DNA of 63,967 nt, counting the filler, from Basidiobolus ranarum (Eukaryota), in NCBI GenBank assembly GCA_040143965.1. It is 3 parts of 3 records of this genome, joined end to end, with 100 filler letters (N's around TTAATTAATTAA, not from the genome) between each part and the next. Parts side by side here need not be neighbours in the genome. Positions count along the whole stretch, not along the records: positions 1 to 22,323 come from JASJQH010000188.1; 2 more parts are not named here. One strand, 5' to 3'. The notes beneath the pieces were generated by a model, which ran no database searches, was not told the DNA's origin, and saw only the letters and a list, made by a program, of their open reading frames with translations. The position numbers and the translations under genes are program-made. How positions within the stretch are numbered: the first letter of the stretch is position 1; each line of letters starts with the position of its first letter. Shown here in pieces: positions 1 to 49,100 of this stretch.

Positions 1-430
1 CTGGTCTTTTGCCGTTTTCACGCAGCCCAAAAAGAATATGTCGGAAATTCAAAGTAGCTGCCATATCACGATTCCAAAGACGATGGTGAAGAGTACCGCC
101 AGAAGTCCCAGTAGTCTCGGTCATGGCATCCATACATTTTTGGTTTTTGCACCTAAATTGAAAACAATCAGCTTCGTTTTTTTTGACTTGCATATAAAAA
201 GCTTTTACCTTAACCAGAAGTTTTGAACTCATCAAGGAGGTATACCTGGAAGCCTTCTTCTCATTCTAATGCCTCTAATGGGCTCATGAAACTTCACATT
301 TCCGACAGTCCAGTTGCCGATTGTTATCACAGCATCATCGCCGAACTTTTTCCGAAGATTCCTGGCTAGTCGTTTGTCTGATTGCTGTCGATTTATAAAG
401 CTTGAAAGTTTCATTTTTCGGTTTTCTGTG
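1..430 (-). pseudogene. Degenerate Fanzor1/TnpB-like RNA-guided nuclease, C-terminal RuvC region; runs off the window edge
   Basis: Minus strand reads RKMKLSSFINRQQSDKRLARNLRKKFGDDAVITIGNW..KFHEPIRG. After a frameshift near 258 it reads GFQVYLLDEFKTS (RuvC-II Glu motif, DEFKTS at 233-216). After a GT-AG intron (208..153) it reads LRCKNQKC...HRLWNRDMAATLNFRHIL (RuvC-III WNRD at 76-65). RuvC-I and the first CxxC are not seen. Confidence 0.85.
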
Positions 431-490
431 ATTTGAGAAGCGGAACGTACCGTGGCTTCCACCCAGTACCAGCGATTGAGCTTTTGACTG

Positions 491-886
491 CTATAATCTT
501 TAGAGGTGGTTTCATAAAGAGAAGAGAAACAGCAATGCCTCTTTTTTAGTTTACAAATAGAAAAGTTTGTTAAGCATATACTCTCAAAAAACATGACGAG
601 TTACAGCAATGAATTGCACAATTTGTCTACAATTATTTTGTTCATTTATCTCATAGTCATCTTATTACGTTTGCTTAGGTAGTGGCTTAGCTCAGCTGGA
701 TTTGGTGGATTTGACTGATTCATTTGTGGCAAGATTGGTAGCTTAGGCACAAGAATGAATGCCAACATGTCATTTATGATCATTAATTGTATGCCCATCA
801 TACTCTCGACGTTCTGTCTATATGCATATGATCAACAAACAAAAGTGCCCACTGCTCTATAATCTTTAGAGGTGGTCCCATAAAGA
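491..886. repeat. 30-bp imperfect direct repeat pair (491-520 and 857-886)
   Basis: CTATAATCTTTAGAGGTGGT(TT/CC)CATAAAGA, 28/30 identical; each copy is followed by GAAGAGAAA. Confidence 0.85.
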
Positions 887-2992
887 AAAGGAAGAGAAAA
901 ACTTATTATAACTTTTTCTTAAATACATCACTGATATATTGTCTTTTAGCTGATTATTTTTGTTTAATGATGCCAACAATAATGTCTGAAAAAGAACCGG
1001 GTTTTGTCTCAAAAATAAGAGCAAATCATCTCATTTTTTGTGTTGTACACGTCCCAGAAGAAGAGGTGAATCGTTTTCAGATCATCTCAATTGGATTTCC
1101 AATCGTCTCATTTTAGAGTAAAACACTGTATATATATATGTGGTAGAATTGTCATGGTGATTCGGTAGGGTTAGGGTTACGCTACATTCAAGTCATAAAC
1201 ATTTGTGGTCAAGCACCATTCCGATTTATTTACAGAAATATACCAAGGTCCCCAAGTATTCTACCAAAAATAATGCTCTAATATTAAAAGTGTCCAGTCA
1301 TAACTATTACGTTATTTTAATTTCAAGGGCGGCACACCAACTTTGATTTCACTTTGTAAAAGGATGGACTTTAGATATTGATCTATTGAAGTCCAATCTT
1401 ACTATGAGCAAAGAGTGTCTTACAGCTTCTAAGGAATTTCCCATCAAGTTATTTTGACTTGAAATTATTCTCTTTTAGTTAGCATTTAGCTTGTAAGCTT
1501 TTACATCGGTCAAGTTATTTCAAAAGTCCTACAATTTGTATGTGCGCTAACTAATTTTCTTGAACGAAACCCCGTTTCCTTTCGTATTGAAAATCTCCCT
1601 TGCATGCTCAGAAATATCTGAAGGATTTTCAAAACTGAATGAAAATCTTCAATGACATCCAGTCACATAACTAATAGATGAGGTATAAAAATTGAGTTGA
1701 TATTCCAAAAGGTCAGAAATATCCATAGATTCCTCTCCTAGCTCAACTCCTTGGCCTTTGTCAAAATATTACTTCCATCCTTGAAGAGATGAAGCTCAGT
1801 TATTCATAATTACCGGTCAAAAGGTCAGAAGATGTGTTTGTATTACTCCTAAAGTACGTTCATTATAGAAATAAAGACGATTAGATACTATAGTAACAAT
1901 AAATAGAATTTTCAATAATAAGTAACGTACTAGTAGCCAAGGAACCCTTTGAAATGGATGGGTACAATACTACTAACAAATTTAAATCTAAAAGTATATT
2001 TGACATGACCTGATCTAGGAATGACACCTAAAGTCCAATCGGAATGTATGTTCACAGGTCGATTATTTCCAAATCTTGATTGGGATTATACTAAATATGC
2101 CTTGCTTAGCCCACTGGTTTGCTGACATTCTGCCCCTATTTGACCGACTATATTTCATGAAAATAGTGCAGGTTATCAGCTATCAACCAGCTTAACAATG
2201 CATTGTTACTGAAGTACATGAAACATGTGTTACACTCACGAGTCTGTTAGCCTACAAGTCAAGAAGTAAGAAATAATATAGGCGCATGGTGAACAGGTAA
2301 TTGGGCAAATCAGATTATCTTGTAAGACATCATATTGACCTCATATGCATGACAGGGTAATATGTTACATGGCTGAGATCATGGGAGCGATAAGCCCATG
2401 ATAACGCTTTAATTGCCAAGTTCTCGCTTATATCCGCCACATGGACAAACCCAAACTACCTTGACAAACTGCCGCTACAAGCAACAGTGGTTAAAATGAA
2501 CCTCCATCGAGAAGTATATGTCTGCCAGCTCAAGAGTACATTTATTACCACTATTAGCTACAATCTAGTGACTAAAGATTGTGTCAACTAAATATAAAGA
2601 TACATTAATGGCCAATCACATAGCACAAGCTACTTTCTACAATCGATGCTTGCAATTCCAATCTCAGATAAGCCAATGAAGTTCCGACTTCATTTCGCAG
2701 AGTATTGCATTATGGGGTTTTGACCTAAATTGAACCTAGCAATTATCCAAACTCCATTAGACAACTATTACTTACAAACATAGCTAGTAGCTTCACAATA
2801 TATGTCCAATCATTGAAACACATTGAAAAAAAAATGCCGGATCCCCTGAAATATCTCAAAATCTCAACAAATCCCCACCCCTTTAACTACTACTTCCTTT
2901 TTAACTGATTTAGGGGTGTGTGAACTCTTCTTTACTTCAAAAGGATCATTATAGTACTTTTCTACGTTTCATTTGTATACTTTTTTATCAGT

Positions 2993-5079
<2,087 letters not shown>

Positions 5080-7593: not shown

Positions 7594-8271
7594 TACACCT
7601 GTACAACTAACCAATCGATTCCGAATAAATATCGGGGTATTAATTTTTAGAACAAATCAAAGCTCGAATGTCTTAGATTAATTAAGCATTCACTCGTAAG
7701 ATATAAATAAACTTCAATATTTTTATAATCTAAAAGTGCTTTAATGGCCATCGTCCAAATGAACTGCACAATTGGAGATATATTCCATCAATAAAAGTCA
7801 TGAGTTCGTACTTTTAGGAATGATATGTACTGATCATTCGATCGCATTATAACCGCGTTTGTAATCTCATTACCCAAGAACATCTACACATAGGTTGATG
7901 TCGTATCGAGTCTTATAGTCACAGTAAAACATGGTACATAAAACATATAGAAGACGCTATTATTAGTGAGTTGAAATTAGACTACAATACTGCGCCGTGT
8001 TGAAACTCGCTTCGTCGTTTGAAAGCGTTTCGGCCAAACGAATGGTTTCTTCAGACATTTTATATCGTTATCGAACACTAAACAATATATTGTCCGAAAT
8101 CTTGGTGAAACAATCCCACTACCTACATGTTGCATGCTTTTTCTTTTTCAAGTTTTACTTCTGATATGATTTCGGAACTACTAATTGATCCAGTACTGGT
8201 AGCTTAATCAATATATAAGACCGAATAACCCTATAGAGCAATTATCCTTAGATGTGCTCTGGTGCCATTCA

Positions 8272-11200
8272 ATGATGTCCAATATAGACTCCATGAGATA
8301 TGGATATCATCAACATGGGGGTATTCGTCCTTTGATGTATTTGGTACTGTTGCTCTTATCGTCAAGTTTACTACTTCCCGAAGCGTCGGCTTTCAGGAAC
8401 ACCGAAAAAGCTCGCTATTGGGATCATTCCTCTAATCCGTATCATACGGAGAGAGGAAAAAGTAATTCGAGAATGAGGCAGCGGCTTATTCCGCAAACTC
8501 GCTTATATGAGGTGGCTGCAATTCCGATGCCAATTGTATTCAACGCATGGGGAGACTATGATCCAAAGGGGCTTATGTTCACTTTAGAGCAAAATCTCGA
8601 ATATCTGAGCGGTCTACGTGAGCATGTGCTAGATTTAGTCAGTCAAAATTCCACTGAGTTGCCTATGGACTCTCTGGTTAAACCACTCGTGTTACGTTGT
8701 AATAAAGGCGATAAGATGTACATTAAATTCAAGAATTATATTGAAGGAAGTCAAGTCGGATTACATCCTCATATCGGGGAGTATGATATTGACGACGATG
8801 GAACTGCCGTCGGAAGCAATTCTAACATATTGTCAAGTTTCGGAGAAGAGAAGGAGTATACATGGCCTTGTATACATGAAGGAACTTTCATGATATCTGA
8901 CGGTGGTGACTATGATGGCTCTGATGATGGCACTATTGTGCATGGTCTCTTTGGTGCCATTATTGTTGAACCTAGAGGATCTCTTTGGACGGATCCAACT
9001 ACCGGTGAACCAACTGTAGATGGTATACATGTTGATATACATCCTTATCCATTGCATGGTGGCTGCCCTAAAAAGGACAATTATTATGAAGAAGATCCTA
9101 AATATTCTCATCCTGACTGTCCTTTCAGAGAGTTTTCGCTTTTCTTCCAAGATAAAGTTGGAATCCAAAACAAACGTCCCCCAACTGCTGATCCATGCAA
9201 GGGCCCTGATCAGACAGGAATCCCTAGAATTAACATTTTCAATTATCGCTCTGAGCCGATGAAAAACCGTGAACTGGCTTTATGGCGCAAGATAAACGAA
9301 GGGTTAATAACGGATGTAAATGGTGAAGAGCAACATCATTCCAGTTGGTTGTTTGGAGATCCAGCCACTCCAATATTTCGTGCATATGCTGGTGATCCTG
9401 TCAAGTACAGAGTTATTGACACTGGTATAACCGAAACTCACGTCTTTCATTTGCATGGACATCAGTGGAGTTCAGGAAGAGGTGATCGAGAGAGTACAAT
9501 TGTTGACTCATTTTCATTGTCGCCCTTAACTACTTGGTATGTGGACATTCATTACGGGGCTGGGTCTAGATTGAAGACTATCGGCGATGTGATTCTCCAT
9601 TGTCACTTATACGCTCACTTTGCAACTGGAATGTGGAGCATCATGCGAGTCATAGATCGTTATGAGGATGGTACAGATACTTATCCGGATGGATCTCCGA
9701 TTCCTAGATTGATTCCATTACCAGGTAGACCCCATCCTCCTTTAAAAAATGAGCGTCAGCCAGGTTTCCCCAACTTCATTGCTGGTACGCCCGGACAGAA
9801 ATCTCCTAGAGTTCCTTGGCCAGTAGAACTCTTTGGTGAAATTCCAGAAGGCTCTGACTACCGTCCTGCAACTGAAATAGAGATAGCTAGTATGAACTCG
9901 GATCCACAAATAGGAAACACTTTCACTCTGATTCCCACCCCTCGCGAGGTAACATCCCACTTTTTCAACGTCAGTATTATGACTCGCAGCGTTGAGTACA
10001 ATAAGTACGGATGGTATTATCCTCATGGTCATATGTATGCACCAGTAGAGAAAGTTCAACCAGATCCTGGGCACCCTGCTAGATACGACCCATTTACAAT
10101 GCGTGTTACCCAGAAGAGTGTCGCTGTAAGTCAGTACAACAACAACCTTCCACAGGTTATCAATGCCACAGCCTTTGATGCACAATTCCCTAGGTGTGAA
10201 GCAGTTGCTCATGAAGGTGAAGCTGGTATGCACGTGCATCTTGTCAAATTTGATGTATTGTCTAGTGACGGGGCGTCTGTAGGTTGGAATTTTATCAGTG
10301 GCGCGCGATATGGTAAATATCTCGTTAATCGTTGGTGGATTGACGATGCTTTGGGTCATGTCTTCTTTCACGATCATTTGTTCGCTAATTTCCGCCAGAA
10401 GAAAGGACTTTATGGTATCGCACCTGTATCACCTGAAGGATCCAAGTTCTACGATACTGTCGAAGCAAAGAAGGAGCAGCGCTATACACCCAGCGCAATA
10501 GTGGTAACTCCTAAGGAATCATTCCGAGAGCAAGTTCTCTTCATTGGTGATTTCACACCGGCATTTTATGCCAATGGCACTGCAATCCATCCACCTATTC
10601 GAAATGAATTGCAGGATCAAGGTATCGTTGTTATGAATTATAGAAATGAGCCACTGGTAGAAAGGAAAGGACTGGATCCTTCCGAGTGGTTCAGTAGTAA
10701 AAATCAATACGGAGATCCTTCCACTACATTATTTGAAGCTTACCGCGGAGATAATATCATTGTGCGTCTTGTACAAGGTGCTCACGATAAGCCGCATAGC
10801 TTCGAGATGCATGGAATGCGTTGGCAAAAGTTTAACGATATTTCAAAAGTTAACGTTACAAGTCAACAAACCATAGGGGTTTCTGAAGGTTTTACATTCA
10901 GAATTCAAGCTGATTATAGTGCAGGTGACCACATTTACAAACTTGGCGGCATTGATGATTTGTGGATTGGTAATTGGGGCATAACTCGTGTGTATGATAA
11001 ACCACAAAAACACTTGGCCAAAATTCCAGGATCTGGTGATATGGTATCTTCTTTCTATCATTCGTCTTCACTGAAGAACATAGCACAGAACAGATATTCC
11101 AATACGAGGACTTCTGCAAGAGAGACCAGTAAATATAAGACAAGAGTAAGTGATGTGCGCAAATATTTCCTAACTGCTAAGCGGCAAGAAATTGTATACA

Positions 11201-12282
11201 ATTCTGATGGGTGGAGTGATCCATATGGCCTGATCTACTGCTTGACCGGGTATCAGGAGCCACACTCACCTGAAGTCATCAAACCTGAACAAGGTGAATG
11301 TTTCAATGTACAAGACGATAAGGTTGATCCGTTAATTATTCGAGGTTTAGTAGGAGAGCGTATCCTACTTTACTTGCATAATGGGCTTCCTAAACATATG
11401 AGTCCTGAACCTTTCCCTATCCCAGTTCCTGCCGATGATCCACATCTTCGAGCTTCGAACAGAGTGTCTATTCATGCTCCGCTCATACAGCATGATGTAA
11501 GATATGATGATGGCAGCAATGTTGGCCGGAATCCAGATTCTACCGTCGGGCCAGGAGAAACAAGAGTATACAGTTGGTTCGCTGATCAGCATTTAGGAGC
11601 TCTTCCACTGCAGGATCATGCTGATGTTCGTAACCATAAGCACCATGGAATAATAGGAGCGCTTGTTATCTTAGATTCTCATCATGTGCCGGATAGGTGG
11701 TATGGTGCTGAAGCTAACATCCACCGACGTTCCCAGTGTGGGTTAGGGGAACTGATATATCAAGATAAAGTGGTTATATTACAATCCGGCCTACGCTTGT
11801 TTCAAAATAATGAACTTAAAGCACCAATTCCCTACGCCAACAAGTCGCCGTATCAGATTCTATCCAACTTTACTGCTCCTGTTCTTGGGGAACAGGGAAT
11901 TGACTTCCAGGATGCGGGATTGAAAGCCATGAACTATCGCACCCAGCCTGCTAGTAGACCTAGTTGGCTGCAGAATGATCAGCCCTCGACCACCGTATTC
12001 CACTCACAGGCGAATGCTCACCAAGTCCTTAATGTTGTCAGCGGTTTGGATAAACCGAGAGCATTATCCTTCCATCTCCATGGTCATACCTGGATGGATC
12101 AATTAAAGTCTCCCGAGCTTGGATATTCTTCTGTCAACAATGCACTCAGTACCGGTTCAACTGTAGCGAATTCCTTTGTAGCTAGCAACAGCACCGGAGA
12201 TTGGGCGTATCGAACCGGAAGCCTAAACGCTGAATACTTAATAGAAAGTTGGGGCATTTTCCGGGTGAGTGCTGAACTATAA
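8272..12282 (+). CDS. Large secreted multicopper oxidase, MnxG (bacterial manganese oxidase)-like, intronless; start ATG uncertain (8272/8275/8293/8335)
   Basis: ~1330-aa uninterrupted ORF with a signal-peptide-like MYLVLLLLSSSLLLPEASA. Copper motifs: LHPH, HVFHLHGHQW (~9439), HCHLYAHFATGMW (~9598, type-1 Cu), MHVHLVKFD (~10228), FFHDHLF (~10363), HSFEMHG, QDHADVRNHKHHG, FHLHGHTW. Confidence 0.85.
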   Translation: MMSNIDSMRYGYHQHGGIRPLMYLVLLLLSSSLLLPEASAFRNTEKARYWDHSSNPYHTERGKSNSRMRQRLIPQTRLYEVAAIPMPIVFNAWGDYDPKGLMFTLEQNLEYLSGLREHVLDLVSQNSTELPMDSLVKPLVLRCNKGDKMYIKFKNYIEGSQVGLHPHIGEYDIDDDGTAVGSNSNILSSFGEEKEYTWPCIHEGTFMISDGGDYDGSDDGTIVHGLFGAIIVEPRGSLWTDPTTGEPTVDGIHVDIHPYPLHGGCPKKDNYYEEDPKYSHPDCPFREFSLFFQDKVGIQNKRPPTADPCKGPDQTGIPRINIFNYRSEPMKNRELALWRKINEGLITDVNGEEQHHSSWLFGDPATPIFRAYAGDPVKYRVIDTGITETHVFHLHGHQWSSGRGDRESTIVDSFSLSPLTTWYVDIHYGAGSRLKTIGDVILHCHLYAHFATGMWSIMRVIDRYEDGTDTYPDGSPIPRLIPLPGRPHPPLKNERQPGFPNFIAGTPGQKSPRVPWPVELFGEIPEGSDYRPATEIEIASMNSDPQIGNTFTLIPTPREVTSHFFNVSIMTRSVEYNKYGWYYPHGHMYAPVEKVQPDPGHPARYDPFTMRVTQKSVAVSQYNNNLPQVINATAFDAQFPRCEAVAHEGEAGMHVHLVKFDVLSSDGASVGWNFISGARYGKYLVNRWWIDDALGHVFFHDHLFANFRQKKGLYGIAPVSPEGSKFYDTVEAKKEQRYTPSAIVVTPKESFREQVLFIGDFTPAFYANGTAIHPPIRNELQDQGIVVMNYRNEPLVERKGLDPSEWFSSKNQYGDPSTTLFEAYRGDNIIVRLVQGAHDKPHSFEMHGMRWQKFNDISKVNVTSQQTIGVSEGFTFRIQADYSAGDHIYKLGGIDDLWIGNWGITRVYDKPQKHLAKIPGSGDMVSSFYHSSSLKNIAQNRYSNTRTSARETSKYKTRVSDVRKYFLTAKRQEIVYNSDGWSDPYGLIYCLTGYQEPHSPEVIKPEQGECFNVQDDKVDPLIIRGLVGERILLYLHNGLPKHMSPEPFPIPVPADDPHLRASNRVSIHAPLIQHDVRYDDGSNVGRNPDSTVGPGETRVYSWFADQHLGALPLQDHADVRNHKHHGIIGALVILDSHHVPDRWYGAEANIHRRSQCGLGELIYQDKVVILQSGLRLFQNNELKAPIPYANKSPYQILSNFTAPVLGEQGIDFQDAGLKAMNYRTQPASRPSWLQNDQPSTTVFHSQANAHQVLNVVSGLDKPRALSFHLHGHTWMDQLKSPELGYSSVNNALSTGSTVANSFVASNSTGDWAYRTGSLNAEYLIESWGIFRVSAEL

Positions 12283-22323: not shown

Positions 22324-22423
22324 NNNNNNNNNNNNNNNNNNNNNNNNNNNNNNNNNNNNNNNNNNNNTTAATTAATTAANNNNNNNNNNNNNNNNNNNNN
22401 NNNNNNNNNNNNNNNNNNNNNNN
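22324..22423. other. Assembly gap (100 nt) with artificial TTAATTAATTAA six-frame stop spacer
   Basis: N run with the spacer at 22368-22379. Confidence 0.98.
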
Positions 22424-42871: not shown

Positions 42872-43713
42872 AGCAGCATTTTTGTATAAATTGGCTAATA
42901 TTACCCCAATTTCGTTTGAATTACATGCTATAGTATTTACTTGCTTGTACGATCAATGTTTGCATGATCGAGGCTGAAGTGAGGCAAGAGCACTCCATAG
43001 AGCCTGCAAGTTGATGCTAGCAACTAAGTAGATTCATGGAGATGTTAGTGTATCTCCAAGTTGCGGTTAAATGAAGGAGACTGCGGTATTTCCAAGTGTG
43101 ATTATACATGAGCAGTCAGACATGGGTTAATCATGTGGTATCAGGAAATCATCGAGTAGATCACATGGTCATATAGTACTCCAGTATGCCAAAAAGCCAA
43201 TAGACGCCAACACGGACACCGACACCGACGTCTATGCAATGAAACCGGAAGTTGGTCTCCTCCATTGTGCTGGTGTGTGAATGCATCGCTCAAACAAAGC
43301 TTCATTTCTTAATTGTTATGAGTTCCAGCAGCCTCGTAAGGGTGTGTGGTGGGTCATTGTGTGGTGGATCGGTGGGAATCAAGGGGATCTTTCTACATAA
43401 TGGAAGAAACGTTCATGTTTCGTAATTTTCATTCTAGAAATATGAATTGATTGGCTCATAATGAGACATCGCCTAGGTTTAGTAAAACCAATGGACGAAG
43501 ACCTACTTTAAAAATATCTAGTCACGAGTGAGATTTCATCATTGGAAAAAGAAATTTGATATTAAGGAGATTAGGGTGACGCAAGTTTCCACCATTTAAA
43601 TACTCGTCTCACGATCTTTGTCCCTACATTCTCTTAACAAACTTTAACCTTCCTTTGTTCTCTTTCTATCTCTTTCATTCTCGTACCAAGTCTGTGACTG
43701 TATATTATTGAAC

Positions 43714-44674
43714 ATGCTGACTTGCAAATTAAAACACATTTTCCTCGCAGTTATATCTCTCCTTTTATTTATTAATGTCTCTGCCTTTTCTTTGGAGGAG
43801 TACTTCACCAACCAGGATGTAAACGTACAAGTGCAGTCTTTAAGCGTATCACCACAGACAAAGATTCTCGCCGTTACCATTGAACAGGTTGATTTAATCA
43901 TTGACGAATTCGGCGAACTAGCCGACCGTACCCGACTACTTGCATTGAACTTGAAAGTCGACCAGAAGCAGTTGATTGACGAAGGACCGATATTCTATAG
44001 AGATATTCCCGTTTACGCTATTGACATTAATGATGAGGTCGATTTATTTGAAGCTGAGTTAAGAAATGAAACTCCCAAGTTACTACCCGTTAAAATGTAC
44101 GCTTGGGCTGATGTTGAGTACAACGAAGAACAGGATATATTCTTTCCTCGTGTGGTTTTACAAACTCAAATCTTGGAAGATAACGCTGTTGAGGCTGAGG
44201 TTGTTCAAGTAATTGTTGACTTGCTTGACAATGACCAAATCTCCTTGTTCCCTCCACAGAAACTCCCCTTAAACCAAGTATATTACCTTCCAGCAGGAAA
44301 TCAGCCATGGACACCATTTTCGGAATTAGATAGTGATCATTCTGTGAAAGCACCACACCACAAATGCGGCAAACACATGAGTAAAATTCACCATCAAGTG
44401 AAATCCTATGTTGAGAATGCTGCTGAGAGCATTAAAGCGTGGTTTTATCAAGCTGCTGAGACGATCAATACTTGGGCAAATGAGCATGTTGACGAACTCC
44501 AACTATTTGCTTTGATCTGGATGAGCATGCTTGGTTTTGTGGTACTCTTCCTTGCTTTACCCACTTTTATCTTCGTACGTGTTAGAAATTATAAGAGACA
44601 AGCACTCCTCGACCTCGAAGTTACTGAGGCCTTACTCCAGGATGAAGAAACCAGAGATCAGAAAATGTTACCCC
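43714..44674 (+). CDS. Hypothetical single-pass membrane protein with a signal peptide, truncated by the gap
   Basis: Hydrophobic N-terminus, acidic domain, His-rich linker and a C-terminal TM helix; the ORF runs into Ns. Confidence 0.7.
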
Positions 44675-44774
44675 NNNNNNNNNNNNNNNNNNNNNNNNNN
44701 NNNNNNNNNNNNNNNNNNTTAATTAATTAANNNNNNNNNNNNNNNNNNNNNNNNNNNNNNNNNNNNNNNNNNNN
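44675..44774. other. Assembly gap (100 nt) with TTAATTAATTAA spacer
   Basis: N run with the spacer at 44719-44730. Confidence 0.98.
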
Positions 44775-46189
44775 AGCAAACCTATCCAATCAATTGGTTT
44801 AGCTGCGAAGCCGGCATATCCTTGTCCAATAATTACGATCACGATTAAAATTAAGGCGAAAATTGGGCCAAAGGGATAGAACATGGCGGTGTAAGGCAAT
44901 TGGGTTACGCTGTTGCCTTGGGCCAAAAAGGCTTTACGGAATCTGTAATGTGAAATGGCAATACCAAACCACGCAATGAAACCGGTGATTCCAGAGGCGT
45001 TAAGTAGCCATTGATATACAGCATTTGCACTGAAAATTGAGGTGGTAAATGAAAGACAAGAGATAAGCGCTGTGAAGCCAAGCGCCCATAATGGGATTCC
45101 GTTGCGACTCACTCTTTTGAGCAATGCAGGAGCTTTACCTTCGTTGGCTAAAACCCATAAGGTTCTTGTGGCAGCATATACACCAGAGTTACCAGCAGAG
45201 AGTAAAGTCAGCATCACAATAGCATTCATAAGATGAGTGGCTGGTGCAAAACCCATAAGTTTAAACACTGTGGTGAATGGACTGGTCGCAATGGATGATA
45301 CATCACTATCTAATAAACTAGGATCGTCATAACGAATGATCATGCCGATGATTAAGATGGCACAGATATAGAACAGGAGAATACGCCAGAAAACTTGTTT
45401 AACAGCTCTGGGGATATCTTTCTCTGGGTTTGCAGATTCACCAGCAGTTACGCCTACAATCTCGGTACCCTGGAAGGAGAAACCAGCGATTAAGAATACT
45501 TGGACCACTCCCAAAGCCCCGTCAACGAATGGAGCTTCCTGAAACGTGAAATTGGATGGACCATACATCTGTGTCTCTTCACCCTTTCGTGTACAAATGA
45601 AGACGATGCCAACGATGATGAAGACAACAACAGTAAGAACTTTGATCAGCGCAAACCAGTATTCCGATTCACCATATCCTTTTACCGATAATGCATTGAA
45701 TCCGATCATTATGATTAGTAAAAGCAACGACCATACCCATGAAGGAAAGCTAGGAAGCCAAAACTTCATAATAACTGAGGCAGCAGCAAGTTCTACGGCA
45801 ACGGTAATAGCCCAACTAAACCAGTAATTCCATCCCAAGGCAAAACCAAGTGCAGGATCCACAAATCGGGAGGCGTAGGTATTAAAGGAACCGGAGATGG
45901 GCATGTAGGCAGCCATTTCACCTAAACTTGTCATCAAAAAAAATACCATGACACCAACCAATGCGTATGCCACCAAGGCACCGCCTGGACCGGCTGTGTG
46001 AATGGAGGTTCCACTTGCCAAGAATAATCCAGTACCAATAGTGCCTCCGATAGCAATCATGGATAGATGGCGAGATTTCAAGTGCCTCTTTAGATCGCCA
46101 TCTTCAAGGTTCAAGTCTTGAGTTTTTTCATCTATAAACTCCGTTTCGTGTTTCGTATCCGGAGATACTATGTGGTTCCTATGAGCCAT
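44775..46189 (-). CDS. APC-family amino acid permease, LysP/YAT-like, intronless, 3' end lost in the gap
   Basis: LKSRHLSMIAIGGTIGTGLF, GFALGWNYW, GFSFQGTE, VFWRILLFY, GFIAWFGIAISHYRFR. Confidence 0.93.
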
Positions 46190-49100
46190 TTTGTAGATTC
46201 AAACAATACTAAGTTGATGATAAGAGTAGATATAAACAACAGATAGTGTGTGAAGAGAAAGTAGTAGTAGGAGGAAGTTGATACTTTCACAGAGCACATC
46301 CCGGCCTCTTTTAAATAGCATCCAAAAGCTTAATTTGGACACTAGTGAGAATGAGCACATGAACGACATATTAACGAATTTTGCTTAATAGTAAATAAAG
46401 TTTTTTTCTTTCAATTATCGAGTGTGACCGTGAAGACATTTCAGTATAAGATGATTTCTTTTGGAAACATAAATTATCAAATCTACAATGTGATTCAGAG
46501 TGAACTTCACATAGAAACCGGTTTGTTACTTAACAGTTCATCCGATATGCGAAATTGGTGCAATTCATGGCCGAATGCAGATTTGAGGGAACAAATGGGT
46601 GCTTATTTTGGGAAAGACATACTCGAAACGGCCCAGCACAAAAGGTACTACAGAATGATTACAATCTCTATCAGTCAAGATAAATGATTGCAAACCCGAG
46701 ACGTGCCATTGGATTGAGTATTGATTTATTCTTTGCTACTTCATAATATGTTCACGTACTCATGTTGATTGAGTGAATTACCAAATCAGTAGTGCCAACC
46801 GGCTTGGATAGTCAACACAAACTGATGAACGAATGTAATGGACGGCCATTTACAGTGTGTAGCACTTACATGAAATCTATACTGCTCACATGTAAGATTA
46901 GTCCTATGCCGAACGAAAACCCCAAAGCTAGTGCACTCGAGGTTGAGGTTCCAAATGATGGGTATCCGGTTGTCAACATCTAGCCAATCCTGACCTTACC
47001 AAAGCGATAGGATTGGGTTCATCATGCGTCTTCTCTAAAGGTGCAAAGCCACTGTCTTACAGAGCTACCTTGCTTTCGTGGTAAAATCTCTATGCATTCA
47101 ATATACCAGATGGCACTCTAATAGCGATTTTCATGAATCAGGTATACGCTTCCTGTTTATGCTCATTAACCAGAGATGACAATACATGTAAACACATCCA
47201 TCATCCCCTTGTGCTGACCTCAAATCAGGTTATGTGAGAAAACAGTTGGGGCTAGGGAATTTCCTTGATCATTTGAATATTGGTTTTCCCACAATTCATT
47301 TTCTTTCGATCTCCCCAAGAAGATGACGATAATTAATCTGTGAGAATTCTATGCTACAGCAACGGTGTTGGTGTACTCTCTACTTGTACAAATTAATCAT
47401 ACTTGATATCAACCGAATCGTCCATTGAACACCCACTGAGACACGTAGAACATCTGGCGCTTCCAAGATGATTGAAATCTACGGTATTTGAAACTTGTTG
47501 ATGATTGACTTCTTCGATTGGATTTATTTGTTGGGTTTAACAGACTATATGTTAGCTCCCACGTATCAGAAGTGCGGATAAAGATGGTGATCTCAAGCAG
47601 CAGTATTAAGAAGAGTGGATCAAGATGATCCCAGACCTTACATTCCTAATAGACACATCCTAACAGATCGAGGAACTACGTGACGAACGACAGTGGTACA
47701 ATGATATGGAACTCTGCTGGCATGCCGCCTTTTCATATGGCTCTTGGGAGAAATAGCCGTACTAGTGCCATGATTGGTAAGAGTAAGCTTGTACAAGCAA
47801 TGATGTTCACCAAAGGCCTATCATCTTATCAAGCTTTGATACCGATGATGTTGCTGCCTTATTAAGTAGATTGGATATTGGTATTGCCCGATTACTTTGT
47901 ATTCTTTTTGGCTCTTTTCTTTAACCAATTCGAACTATAACTTTGAAACCTAATTTGTATGAACTGAATCACTGGGGCTCTTATCTGCCTTACTAGGCTA
48001 GCAAAGCTCGTTGGAATTGCTTAGCCTTGTTCCTCTACAATCCAACCTTTTGGGCAGATGAGTATACAGTATTGTCATAGCAAAAGTGATATGGTTCGTA
48101 AGATTTGTGAAATGGATACGTTTCGCAGGATACATACTGCTGTAACCGTTTTTCTGGATCTTACATGTACAATCAACTACCAAATGATTAGATAGGAACC
48201 ATTGTGAATAGATGATGTGTTAATCAGGTAGATACTCACACCAATGCATCGGTTATAGCTTTGAGAACTACATATATACATCTTATCCTGTTTGCAATTT
48301 TACCCCTGGGGTTTTGGCCCTAGATTGAATAGCTTCTCTTTGTAAAGTCAACATGAGTGGCACTACTGGGTATATGGAGTGACAATGCTTACGGCCATCA
48401 CTATTGATATCCATCTTACGATAGAAACGGCATTAAGCTCTCCATCAAGTACTCGGTGAAAAATACCAGGTGTATTTGGAACAAACAGAGGCCTCCCCCG
48501 CGTATGAAATTCTCCATACAGTCAGGATGTTTAGGGTTGACAACAAGAAACTGAACAAGCAGGTTAAGGCTGCTACACCAATAGGATCAATGCCGAGTCA
48601 CTTTTAACTTTTCTACTAACTGCATCAACTGGAGGGGTTTCCTCCATCGTAAAATAATCTATCTAAGGCTAGGCGGATAATCACTCCCGGATGCCTCTGT
48701 ATCCATGTATATATGAATGTTTATTAAGCAATACATGTTCGTGCAAGGTAAACCTAATTTCGCCAACGTTAACTTTAAACTGGAGATATTTCAAATTTGG
48801 CTCGTGGATTCCCCGACATTTCCCAAATCGAAAGATTTATTGGAGTTCTATTATCCACCAAAATCATCAATTTTTCATTGGAATGTGTCTTGTGACAACA
48901 CAATCATCCTAAACAGGTGTACTTTCATGAGCACATAGAAATCGCGTCATGTAGGACAATGAGCCGATACTCAGAAATCCCATTTCTAGATAATAAATCG
49001 GGAAGGATCATTGGTTGTATGCAAGCAAAGTGCCGTTGTGCCACCTATTTTGCTCGAGCCTGAGTAAGCCCAGCTAAATGCACCATTCTTTCCATATTGT

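Follow-up and report, generated by a model that had tools for sequence, protein, structure and literature searches.

The left edge of the stretch of Basidiobolus ranarum DNA analysed here (63,967 nt, the window) raises the question of whether a set of short minus-strand reading segments is the debris of a eukaryotic RNA-guided nuclease of the Fanzor1/TnpB family, as an initial annotation had proposed, and, if it is, what kind of element carried the gene and how much of it has been lost. The reading that we favour, and consider very probable, is that positions 1-1128 (minus strand) hold the left-hand three quarters of a non-autonomous DNA transposon of Mucorales type, dead and internally deleted, with Fanzor1 as its one gene. 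The features that bear on this are collected in Table 1. The DNA reference for mapping the lesions is a full-length relative on a metagenome contig of 4815 nt (L001).

Table 1. Features of the Fanzor1 remnant and of the element around it, in window coordinates; L001 coordinates are given where a feature is defined against that contig.
Feature	Sequence or motif	Position	Strand	Remarks
Segment 3, last exon	CKNQKC...RLWNRDMAATLNF...GKRP	1..152 (peptide 152 to 2)	minus	Open at window edge
Spliceosomal intron, 56 nt, phase 2	GT..AG	153..208	minus	Position same as in relatives
Segment 2	EEGFQVYLLDEFKTSG then TAA at 212..210	213..260	minus	Shifted frame; RuvC-II glutamate motif DEFKTS
106-bp deletion		after base 214	minus	L001 3927-4032; first CxxC and ~35 codons of TNB zinc finger lost
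14-bp deletion		between 261 and 260	minus	L001 3867-3880; shifts frame
Segment 1	RKMKLSSF...GNW...HEPIRG-IRMR	261..423	minus	MKLSSF at 414; C-terminal RuvC piece
Large internal deletion junction		420..432	minus	L001 2303-3706 (1404 bp, ~1.4 kb) without counterpart
N-terminal fragment, Fanzor1 ORF residues 1-29		429..515	minus	tblastn, and blastn to L001
Filler, ~330 bp		856..530	minus	Between the two start-region copies
Extra partial start-codon region	ATG and ~8 codons	857..901	minus	Direct repeat, blastn
Three subterminal direct repeats, 15 nt	GAGA[C/T]GAT core	1022-1036, 1078-1092, 1099-1113	minus	Repeat search
Probable left (5') terminal inverted repeat (TIR)	Begins CAGTG	1101..1128	minus	Outermost base 1128

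The window has a G+C content of 38% and holds ordinary eukaryotic genes, which places the remnant in normal gene-rich fungal DNA. These genes include a DEAD-box helicase, a multicopper oxidase, a Ras-type GTPase, an RGS protein, eEF1A, an amino-acid permease and GDA1/CD39; the helicase gene is ~2 kb from the remnant. Two further observations concern the window at large. A single open frame of 1359 codons at 8203-12282 (+), with Cu-oxidase_2 at residues 385-481 and Cu-oxidase_3 at residues 1085-1159, could represent two neighbouring genes, or else one laccase-like gene that is fused or duplicated. Four runs of N, each exactly 44 long, form two pairs at 22324-22423 and 44675-44774, with 12 bases between the runs of a pair. 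One pair, that at 44675-44774, falls where two long ORFs meet (43648-44730, +, and the amino-acid permease at 44723-46198, -), and all four runs look like masked or withheld stretches rather than assembly gaps.

Translation confirmed that the three peptide segments quoted in the initial annotation lie on the minus strand where they had been placed, as collinear pieces of a Fanzor1 gene within window 1-515. A tblastn search with a Gilbertella protein of 585 aa (P0003) recovered the three pieces in collinear order (summed E=2.9e-32, far beyond chance) and no further Fanzor-like copy in the 64-kb window. Read from 414 to 235, segment 1 continues after HEPIRG as IRMRRR...PP and runs into two stops. 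Segment 2, which is 81% identical to residues 537-552 of another relative (P0023, tblastn), keeps the DEFKTS motif in a shifted frame; D546 and E547 are invariant among the aligned relatives. In segment 3 the second CxxC (CKNQKC) is followed by the RuvC-III motif WNRDMAATLNF with its aspartate, aligned to WNRDQAAVLNF of the Fanzor1 structure 9cf0. The N-terminal fragment was matched by residues 1-29 of P0023 with 62% identity (tblastn, E=5e-6), and its reading continues to a stop after 34 codons. At the DNA level, window 523..433 corresponds to L001 2212-2302, the start codon and 29 codons, with 84.6% identity over 91 nt (blastn).

The family membership that had been proposed is borne out by direct matches of the pieces to solved Fanzor1 proteins. 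In a phmmer search of PDB sequences, segment 1 matched PpFz1 (9cf0, residues 1097-1153) with E=2e-11 and SpuFz1 (8gkh) with E=1.8e-4, and a search of PDB sequences with segment 3 matched 9cf0 residues 1206-1249 with E=2.2e-6. The 77%-identical relative P0003 gave E=6.9e-127 with PpFz1 and 1.8e-47 with SpuFz1; its next PDB hits were noise (E>0.02). The family is a large one: at thresholds of E<=1e-3, E<=1e-10 and E<=1e-30, the same protein matched 2393, 1269 and 253 cluster representatives, respectively. In a word-indexed search with segment 1, all 24 hits at E<=0.01 were relatives, with 61-80% identity, and every one of them that has a source name comes from Gilbertella persicaria or a Rhizopus species (Mucorales).

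A profile search had been suggested as a check in the initial annotation. Although the pieces found Fanzor1 among PDB sequences, Pfam and NCBIfam were silent, with 0 families on the two longer pieces scanned alone (the 16-residue piece 2 was left out). The TnpB zinc-ribbon family PF07282 appeared below threshold in four of the six relatives scanned, at best with 20.7 bits against a cut-off of 26.3 (E=4.6e-4), and did not match the other two; the main exon of L001 had no Pfam hit. The Pfam label PF26935.1 is precomputed on 10 of the 24 hits and was absent from our local Pfam scan of six relatives. A metagenome scan gave two relatives among the at least 586 pattern matches listed, namely L001 at full length and a 190-nt fragment (L002), which was left out of the analysis. 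Viral contigs gave none among 55 pattern matches. The matches to solved Fanzor1 proteins and the alignment to L001 described below support the reading of the remnant as a dead copy of the Fanzor1/TnpB family.

The break before segment 3, which had been ascribed to an intron, is indeed a GT..AG intron conserved in the relatives. It aligns to the intron of L001 and is 3 nt shorter. Gene models of the relatives treat this intron in two ways: three (P0002, P0015 and P0023) run into it after HGLLR, and three (P0003, P0018 and P0020) are spliced to LRCKN. The conserved spliceosomal intron, together with the fungal origin of all source-named hits, led us to reject bacterial TnpB or contamination as the source.

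The state of the gene was read against L001, whose ORF starts at 2220, has one intron after HGLLR and stops at 4359-4361, with a single frameshift in a T-run; because of that frameshift L001 is not provably an intact reference. The initial annotation had called the copy dead, with RuvC-I and the first CxxC deleted and a frameshift between segments 1 and 2, and mapped on L001 these defects become losses of ~1.4 kb, 106 bp and 14 bp, respectively. The largest loss lies between two blastn matches (window 523..433 to L001 2212-2302, and window 419..213 to L001 3707-3927). It joins codon ~29 to the final ~150 codons, with loss of REC/WED and RuvC-I. The RuvC-I block IDPGRRD, in which I389 and D390 are invariant in the alignment of the relatives, falls within the missing part of L001, and neither tblastn nor blastn found a piece of this aspartate block anywhere in the 64-kb window. 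The C4 zinc finger of the TNB domain is incomplete, and CKNQKC alone remains of it. Since the two smaller losses sum to 120 bp (14+106=120), the last exon, once spliced, regains the frame of segment 1 rather than that of segment 2. That frame is shut by two stops before the splice donor, and the frame of segment 2 by an in-frame TAA before the donor.

The copy has also gained sequence. The start region occurs twice, as a direct repeat of 34 nt with 91% identity (repeat search, duplicate at 857-890), and the duplicate is 81.8% identical to L001 2200-2243 (blastn). Neither the filler nor the 5' leader has a match within the window or in L001.

An intact ORF is absent: the pieces lie in three frames, there is a stop after each of the first three fragments, ~470 codons are gone, and nothing longer than two peptides of 34 and 60 residues can be read from it. 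The remnant cannot make a nuclease. In the accessible text of Xu et al. (Cell 2024, PMC11423790), the two aspartates of the catalytic triad lie on the second beta strand and on a helix, and the glutamate lies on the loop that precedes the TNB domain. The remnant retains the E (in DEFKTS) and the last D (in NRD), along with the second CxxC. Having lost the first D and REC/WED, and with a zinc finger reduced to half, it can have no activity.

The initial annotation had confined the feature to 1-430. The three segments do lie inside that interval, but the feature reaches on to 515, to 857-901 and to a probable TIR whose outermost base is 1128. This left repeat, the one member of the pair inside the window, agrees at 26 of 27 bases with positions 2-28 of the right TIR of L001, and its 23-mer occurs only once in the window, against an expectation of 0 from 100 shuffles. 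The dinucleotide TA at 1130..1129 flanks it, inside an (AT)n run. A motif similar to the GAGA[C/T]GAT subterminal repeats recurs in the TIRs of L001, and we infer that these are putative transposase-binding-type repeats.

In L001 the whole element can be seen. It measures 2856 bp, with TIRs of 133 nt at 1723-1855 and 4446-4578 that are identical at 118 of 133 positions (89%). TA abuts both ends, the Fanzor ORF is the sole gene inside, and no transposase ORF was found between the TIRs. Counting the left end in the window, TA is present at three of the three visible ends, although in the window the flank is an (AT)n run. CAGT-type termini mark the Tc1/mariner superfamily. Judged by its TA flanks and its CAGTG/TAGTG termini only, the sequence suggests a non-autonomous element of Tc1/mariner type.

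Because the TIR at 1128 matches L001, the feature spans 1-1128 and would extend a further ~330 bp beyond the left edge. Position 1 of the window aligns to L001 4248, and by analogy with that contig the ~330 bp to the left of it would hold ~37 codons, the stop, roughly 217 nt of 3' sequence and the right repeat. The 3' end of the element had been placed just left of position 1, which is roughly right if L001 is a guide: the stop would lie ~110 nt, and the right end ~330 nt, to the left.

Three observations were made on these ends and their surroundings. The TIRs of L001 are unusually long, such that a guide-RNA scaffold of PpFz1 size at the right end would fall wholly within the repeat and have its mirror image at the left end. 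Two telomere-like CCCTAA units are present in the window at 1149-1170 (minus, GTAACCCTAACCCTACC), ~20 bp outside the left end of the element. They adjoin the (AT)n run that holds the element, and may be there by chance or belong to an interstitial telomere-like tract. On L001 the Fanzor element has upstream of it an ORF (1-840, +) whose 5' end is open and which gives a weak match to Phage_integrase (tyrosine recombinase; E=5.2e-4, 20.3 bits, under the cut-off of 27.1), and a Crypton/DIRS-type element may lie beside the Fanzor there.

A copy whose protein is dead need not be inert, and the remnant could instead be a deletion derivative with both ends, mobile in trans, whose omegaRNA is used by an intact Fanzor1 elsewhere, in the manner of a ghost-like guide locus. 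We consider this rather unlikely. The good preservation of the left TIR against L001 speaks for it, as does the fact that the last 133 nt of the L001 element are TIR, with room for an RNA of PpFz1 size (75 nt). There is also a precedent in S. punctatus, for which the accessible text of Saito et al. (Nature 2023, PMC10432273) gives 134 ghost loci, with partial Fz genes and ghost omegaRNAs functional with SpuFz1. However, when the right and left ends of L001 and the left end in the window were folded as single sequences, they did no better than shuffled sequences (z of -0.33, +0.79, -0.81 and -0.42), and Rfam gave no match on L001 at E<=1. That the broken copy is a working guide locus is distinctly unlikely. 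If its right end is intact, such a locus could supply omegaRNA to a compact, apparently FRI-less Fanzor1 (see below) elsewhere in the genome, and the mirror-image left end could give a second, outward-reading guide. Were this true, intact copies would be further editing-tool candidates near PpFz1.

Homopolymer errors are common, L001 has one shift of homopolymer type, and the four N runs mean that the window sequence is not flawless, so one might ask whether the gene is really intact and its breaks are assembly or sequencing artefacts, or unrecognised introns. This we hold to be highly improbable: the N runs are >22 kb away from the remnant, and against L001 the copy has lost stretches of 1404, 14 and 106 bp and gained a duplication with 330 bp of filler, which fits neither inserted introns nor single-base shifts. 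Harder still to credit is a domesticated or exapted piece, in which the C-terminus of Fanzor would serve as a short host protein or a regulatory RNA. The region is gene-dense, with the helicase gene close by, and piece 3 regains the frame of piece 1 once spliced. Yet the frame of piece 1 runs into two stops ahead of the splice donor, the pieces are not united by any ORF, half of the zinc finger is gone, and no relative of such architecture is present among the 24 hits.

We return to the preferred reading, that of a dead and internally deleted transposon copy. The element type has long TIRs and carries a single gene, that of Fanzor1, an omegaRNA-guided RuvC nuclease descended from bacterial TnpB, and would use TA sites in the manner of Tc1/mariner. 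An intact element would work as relatives are known to do: its right end would be transcribed into a short RNA bound by the protein, and the 3' tail of that RNA, read from flanking DNA, would guide cleavage of matching DNA next to a short TAM. For PpFz1, the accessible text of Xu et al. (PMC11423790) gives DNA cleavage in vitro, a 5'-ATN TAM and an omegaRNA of 75 nt. The present copy has lost ~1.4 kb (REC/WED and RuvC-I), 14 bp and 106 bp, and has gained a duplicated start region and filler DNA. Such a lesion pattern is probably the outcome of abortive gap repair after excision, which typically scars DNA transposons in this way.

The remnant represents, in dead form, a family that is known and has already been exploited; published work covers Fanzor1 in Mucorales as well as partial copies and guide-only derivatives. 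It means that this genome has hosted a Mucorales-type Fanzor1 element, which is expected. For a Mucorales homologue, PpFz1, there is a cryo-EM structure as well as a demonstration of DNA cutting (PMC11423790, accessible text). There are two modest by-products, a base-level map of the decay of one copy, and the observation that the Fanzor1 of this clade rides a 2.9-kb TA-flanked element with unusually long inverted repeats of 133 nt. Intact copies, if they exist in the genome, would be routine additions to the candidate compact RNA-guided nucleases.

Among characterised systems, PpFz1 of Parasitella parasitica (PDB 9cf0-9cf3; Xu et al., Cell 2024, PMC11423790) belongs to the same family and comes from the order Mucorales, as do the source-named relatives in the database. 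Its RuvC/TNB C-terminus is where the pieces in the window align, with the GNW, DEFxTS, CxxC and WNRD motifs in common, and P0003 aligns to it over three stretches (E=6.9e-127). PpFz1 is intact and active, whereas the window copy is without RuvC-I, REC/WED and half of the zinc finger. A further difference concerns PpFz1 chain residues 985-1092 (~107 residues), which have no counterpart in P0003 (by alignment) or, by length, in L001, and would in any case be deleted in the window copy. This gap probably corresponds to the roughly 100-residue FRI insertion of PpFz1, and if that placement is correct, the Mucorales clade of P0003 and L001 seems to be without FRI. In the accessible text of the PpFz1 paper, the FRI insertion is reported only in Parasitella and Rhizopus.

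The Spu-1 elements of S. punctatus provide a second comparison. The accessible text of Saito et al. (PMC10432273) describes them as bounded by inverted repeats (IRs), with Fanzor1 as the only gene, and as occurring in full-length, partial and ORF-less copies. The likeness to the L001-type element lies in the bounding inverted repeats and in Fanzor1 as the only gene, and SpuFz1 matches both P0003 (E=1.8e-47) and piece 1 of the window (E=1.8e-4). On the same description, the IRs of Spu-1 are of 30 nt with a CA motif, in contrast to the 133-nt TIRs and TA flanks of the L001 type. The host of Spu-1 belongs to a different fungal phylum, and identity is much lower.

A third comparison is with the elements catalogued by Bao and Jurka (Mobile DNA 2013, PMC3627910), whose accessible text includes Fanzor1-only elements with Mariner TIRs and TA duplications. 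It lists 17 Fanzor1 families, four in Rhizopus oryzae, 10 in Mucor circinelloides and three in Phycomyces blakesleeanus, and assigns ROr-4, MCi-4 and PBl-3 to MuDr. As in the elements described there, Fanzor1 appears in L001 to have been captured by a TA-inserting TIR transposon without a transposase of its own. The comparison of the L001-type TIR family with the catalogued ROr, MCi and PBl families is one by description only.

The bacterial TnpB proteins of IS200/IS605 and IS607 (PF07282, Cas12f1-like TNB domain) have the same RuvC and zinc-ribbon architecture as Fanzor, and the motif order D...E...C4...RD is common to TnpB and Fanzor in the accessible text of the same catalogue (PMC3627910). 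Unlike the bacterial genes, that of the relatives is eukaryotic, with a spliceosomal intron, and its score for PF07282 stays below the gathering score. Where IS200/605 elements end in hairpins, the L001-type element has TIRs and TA flanks.
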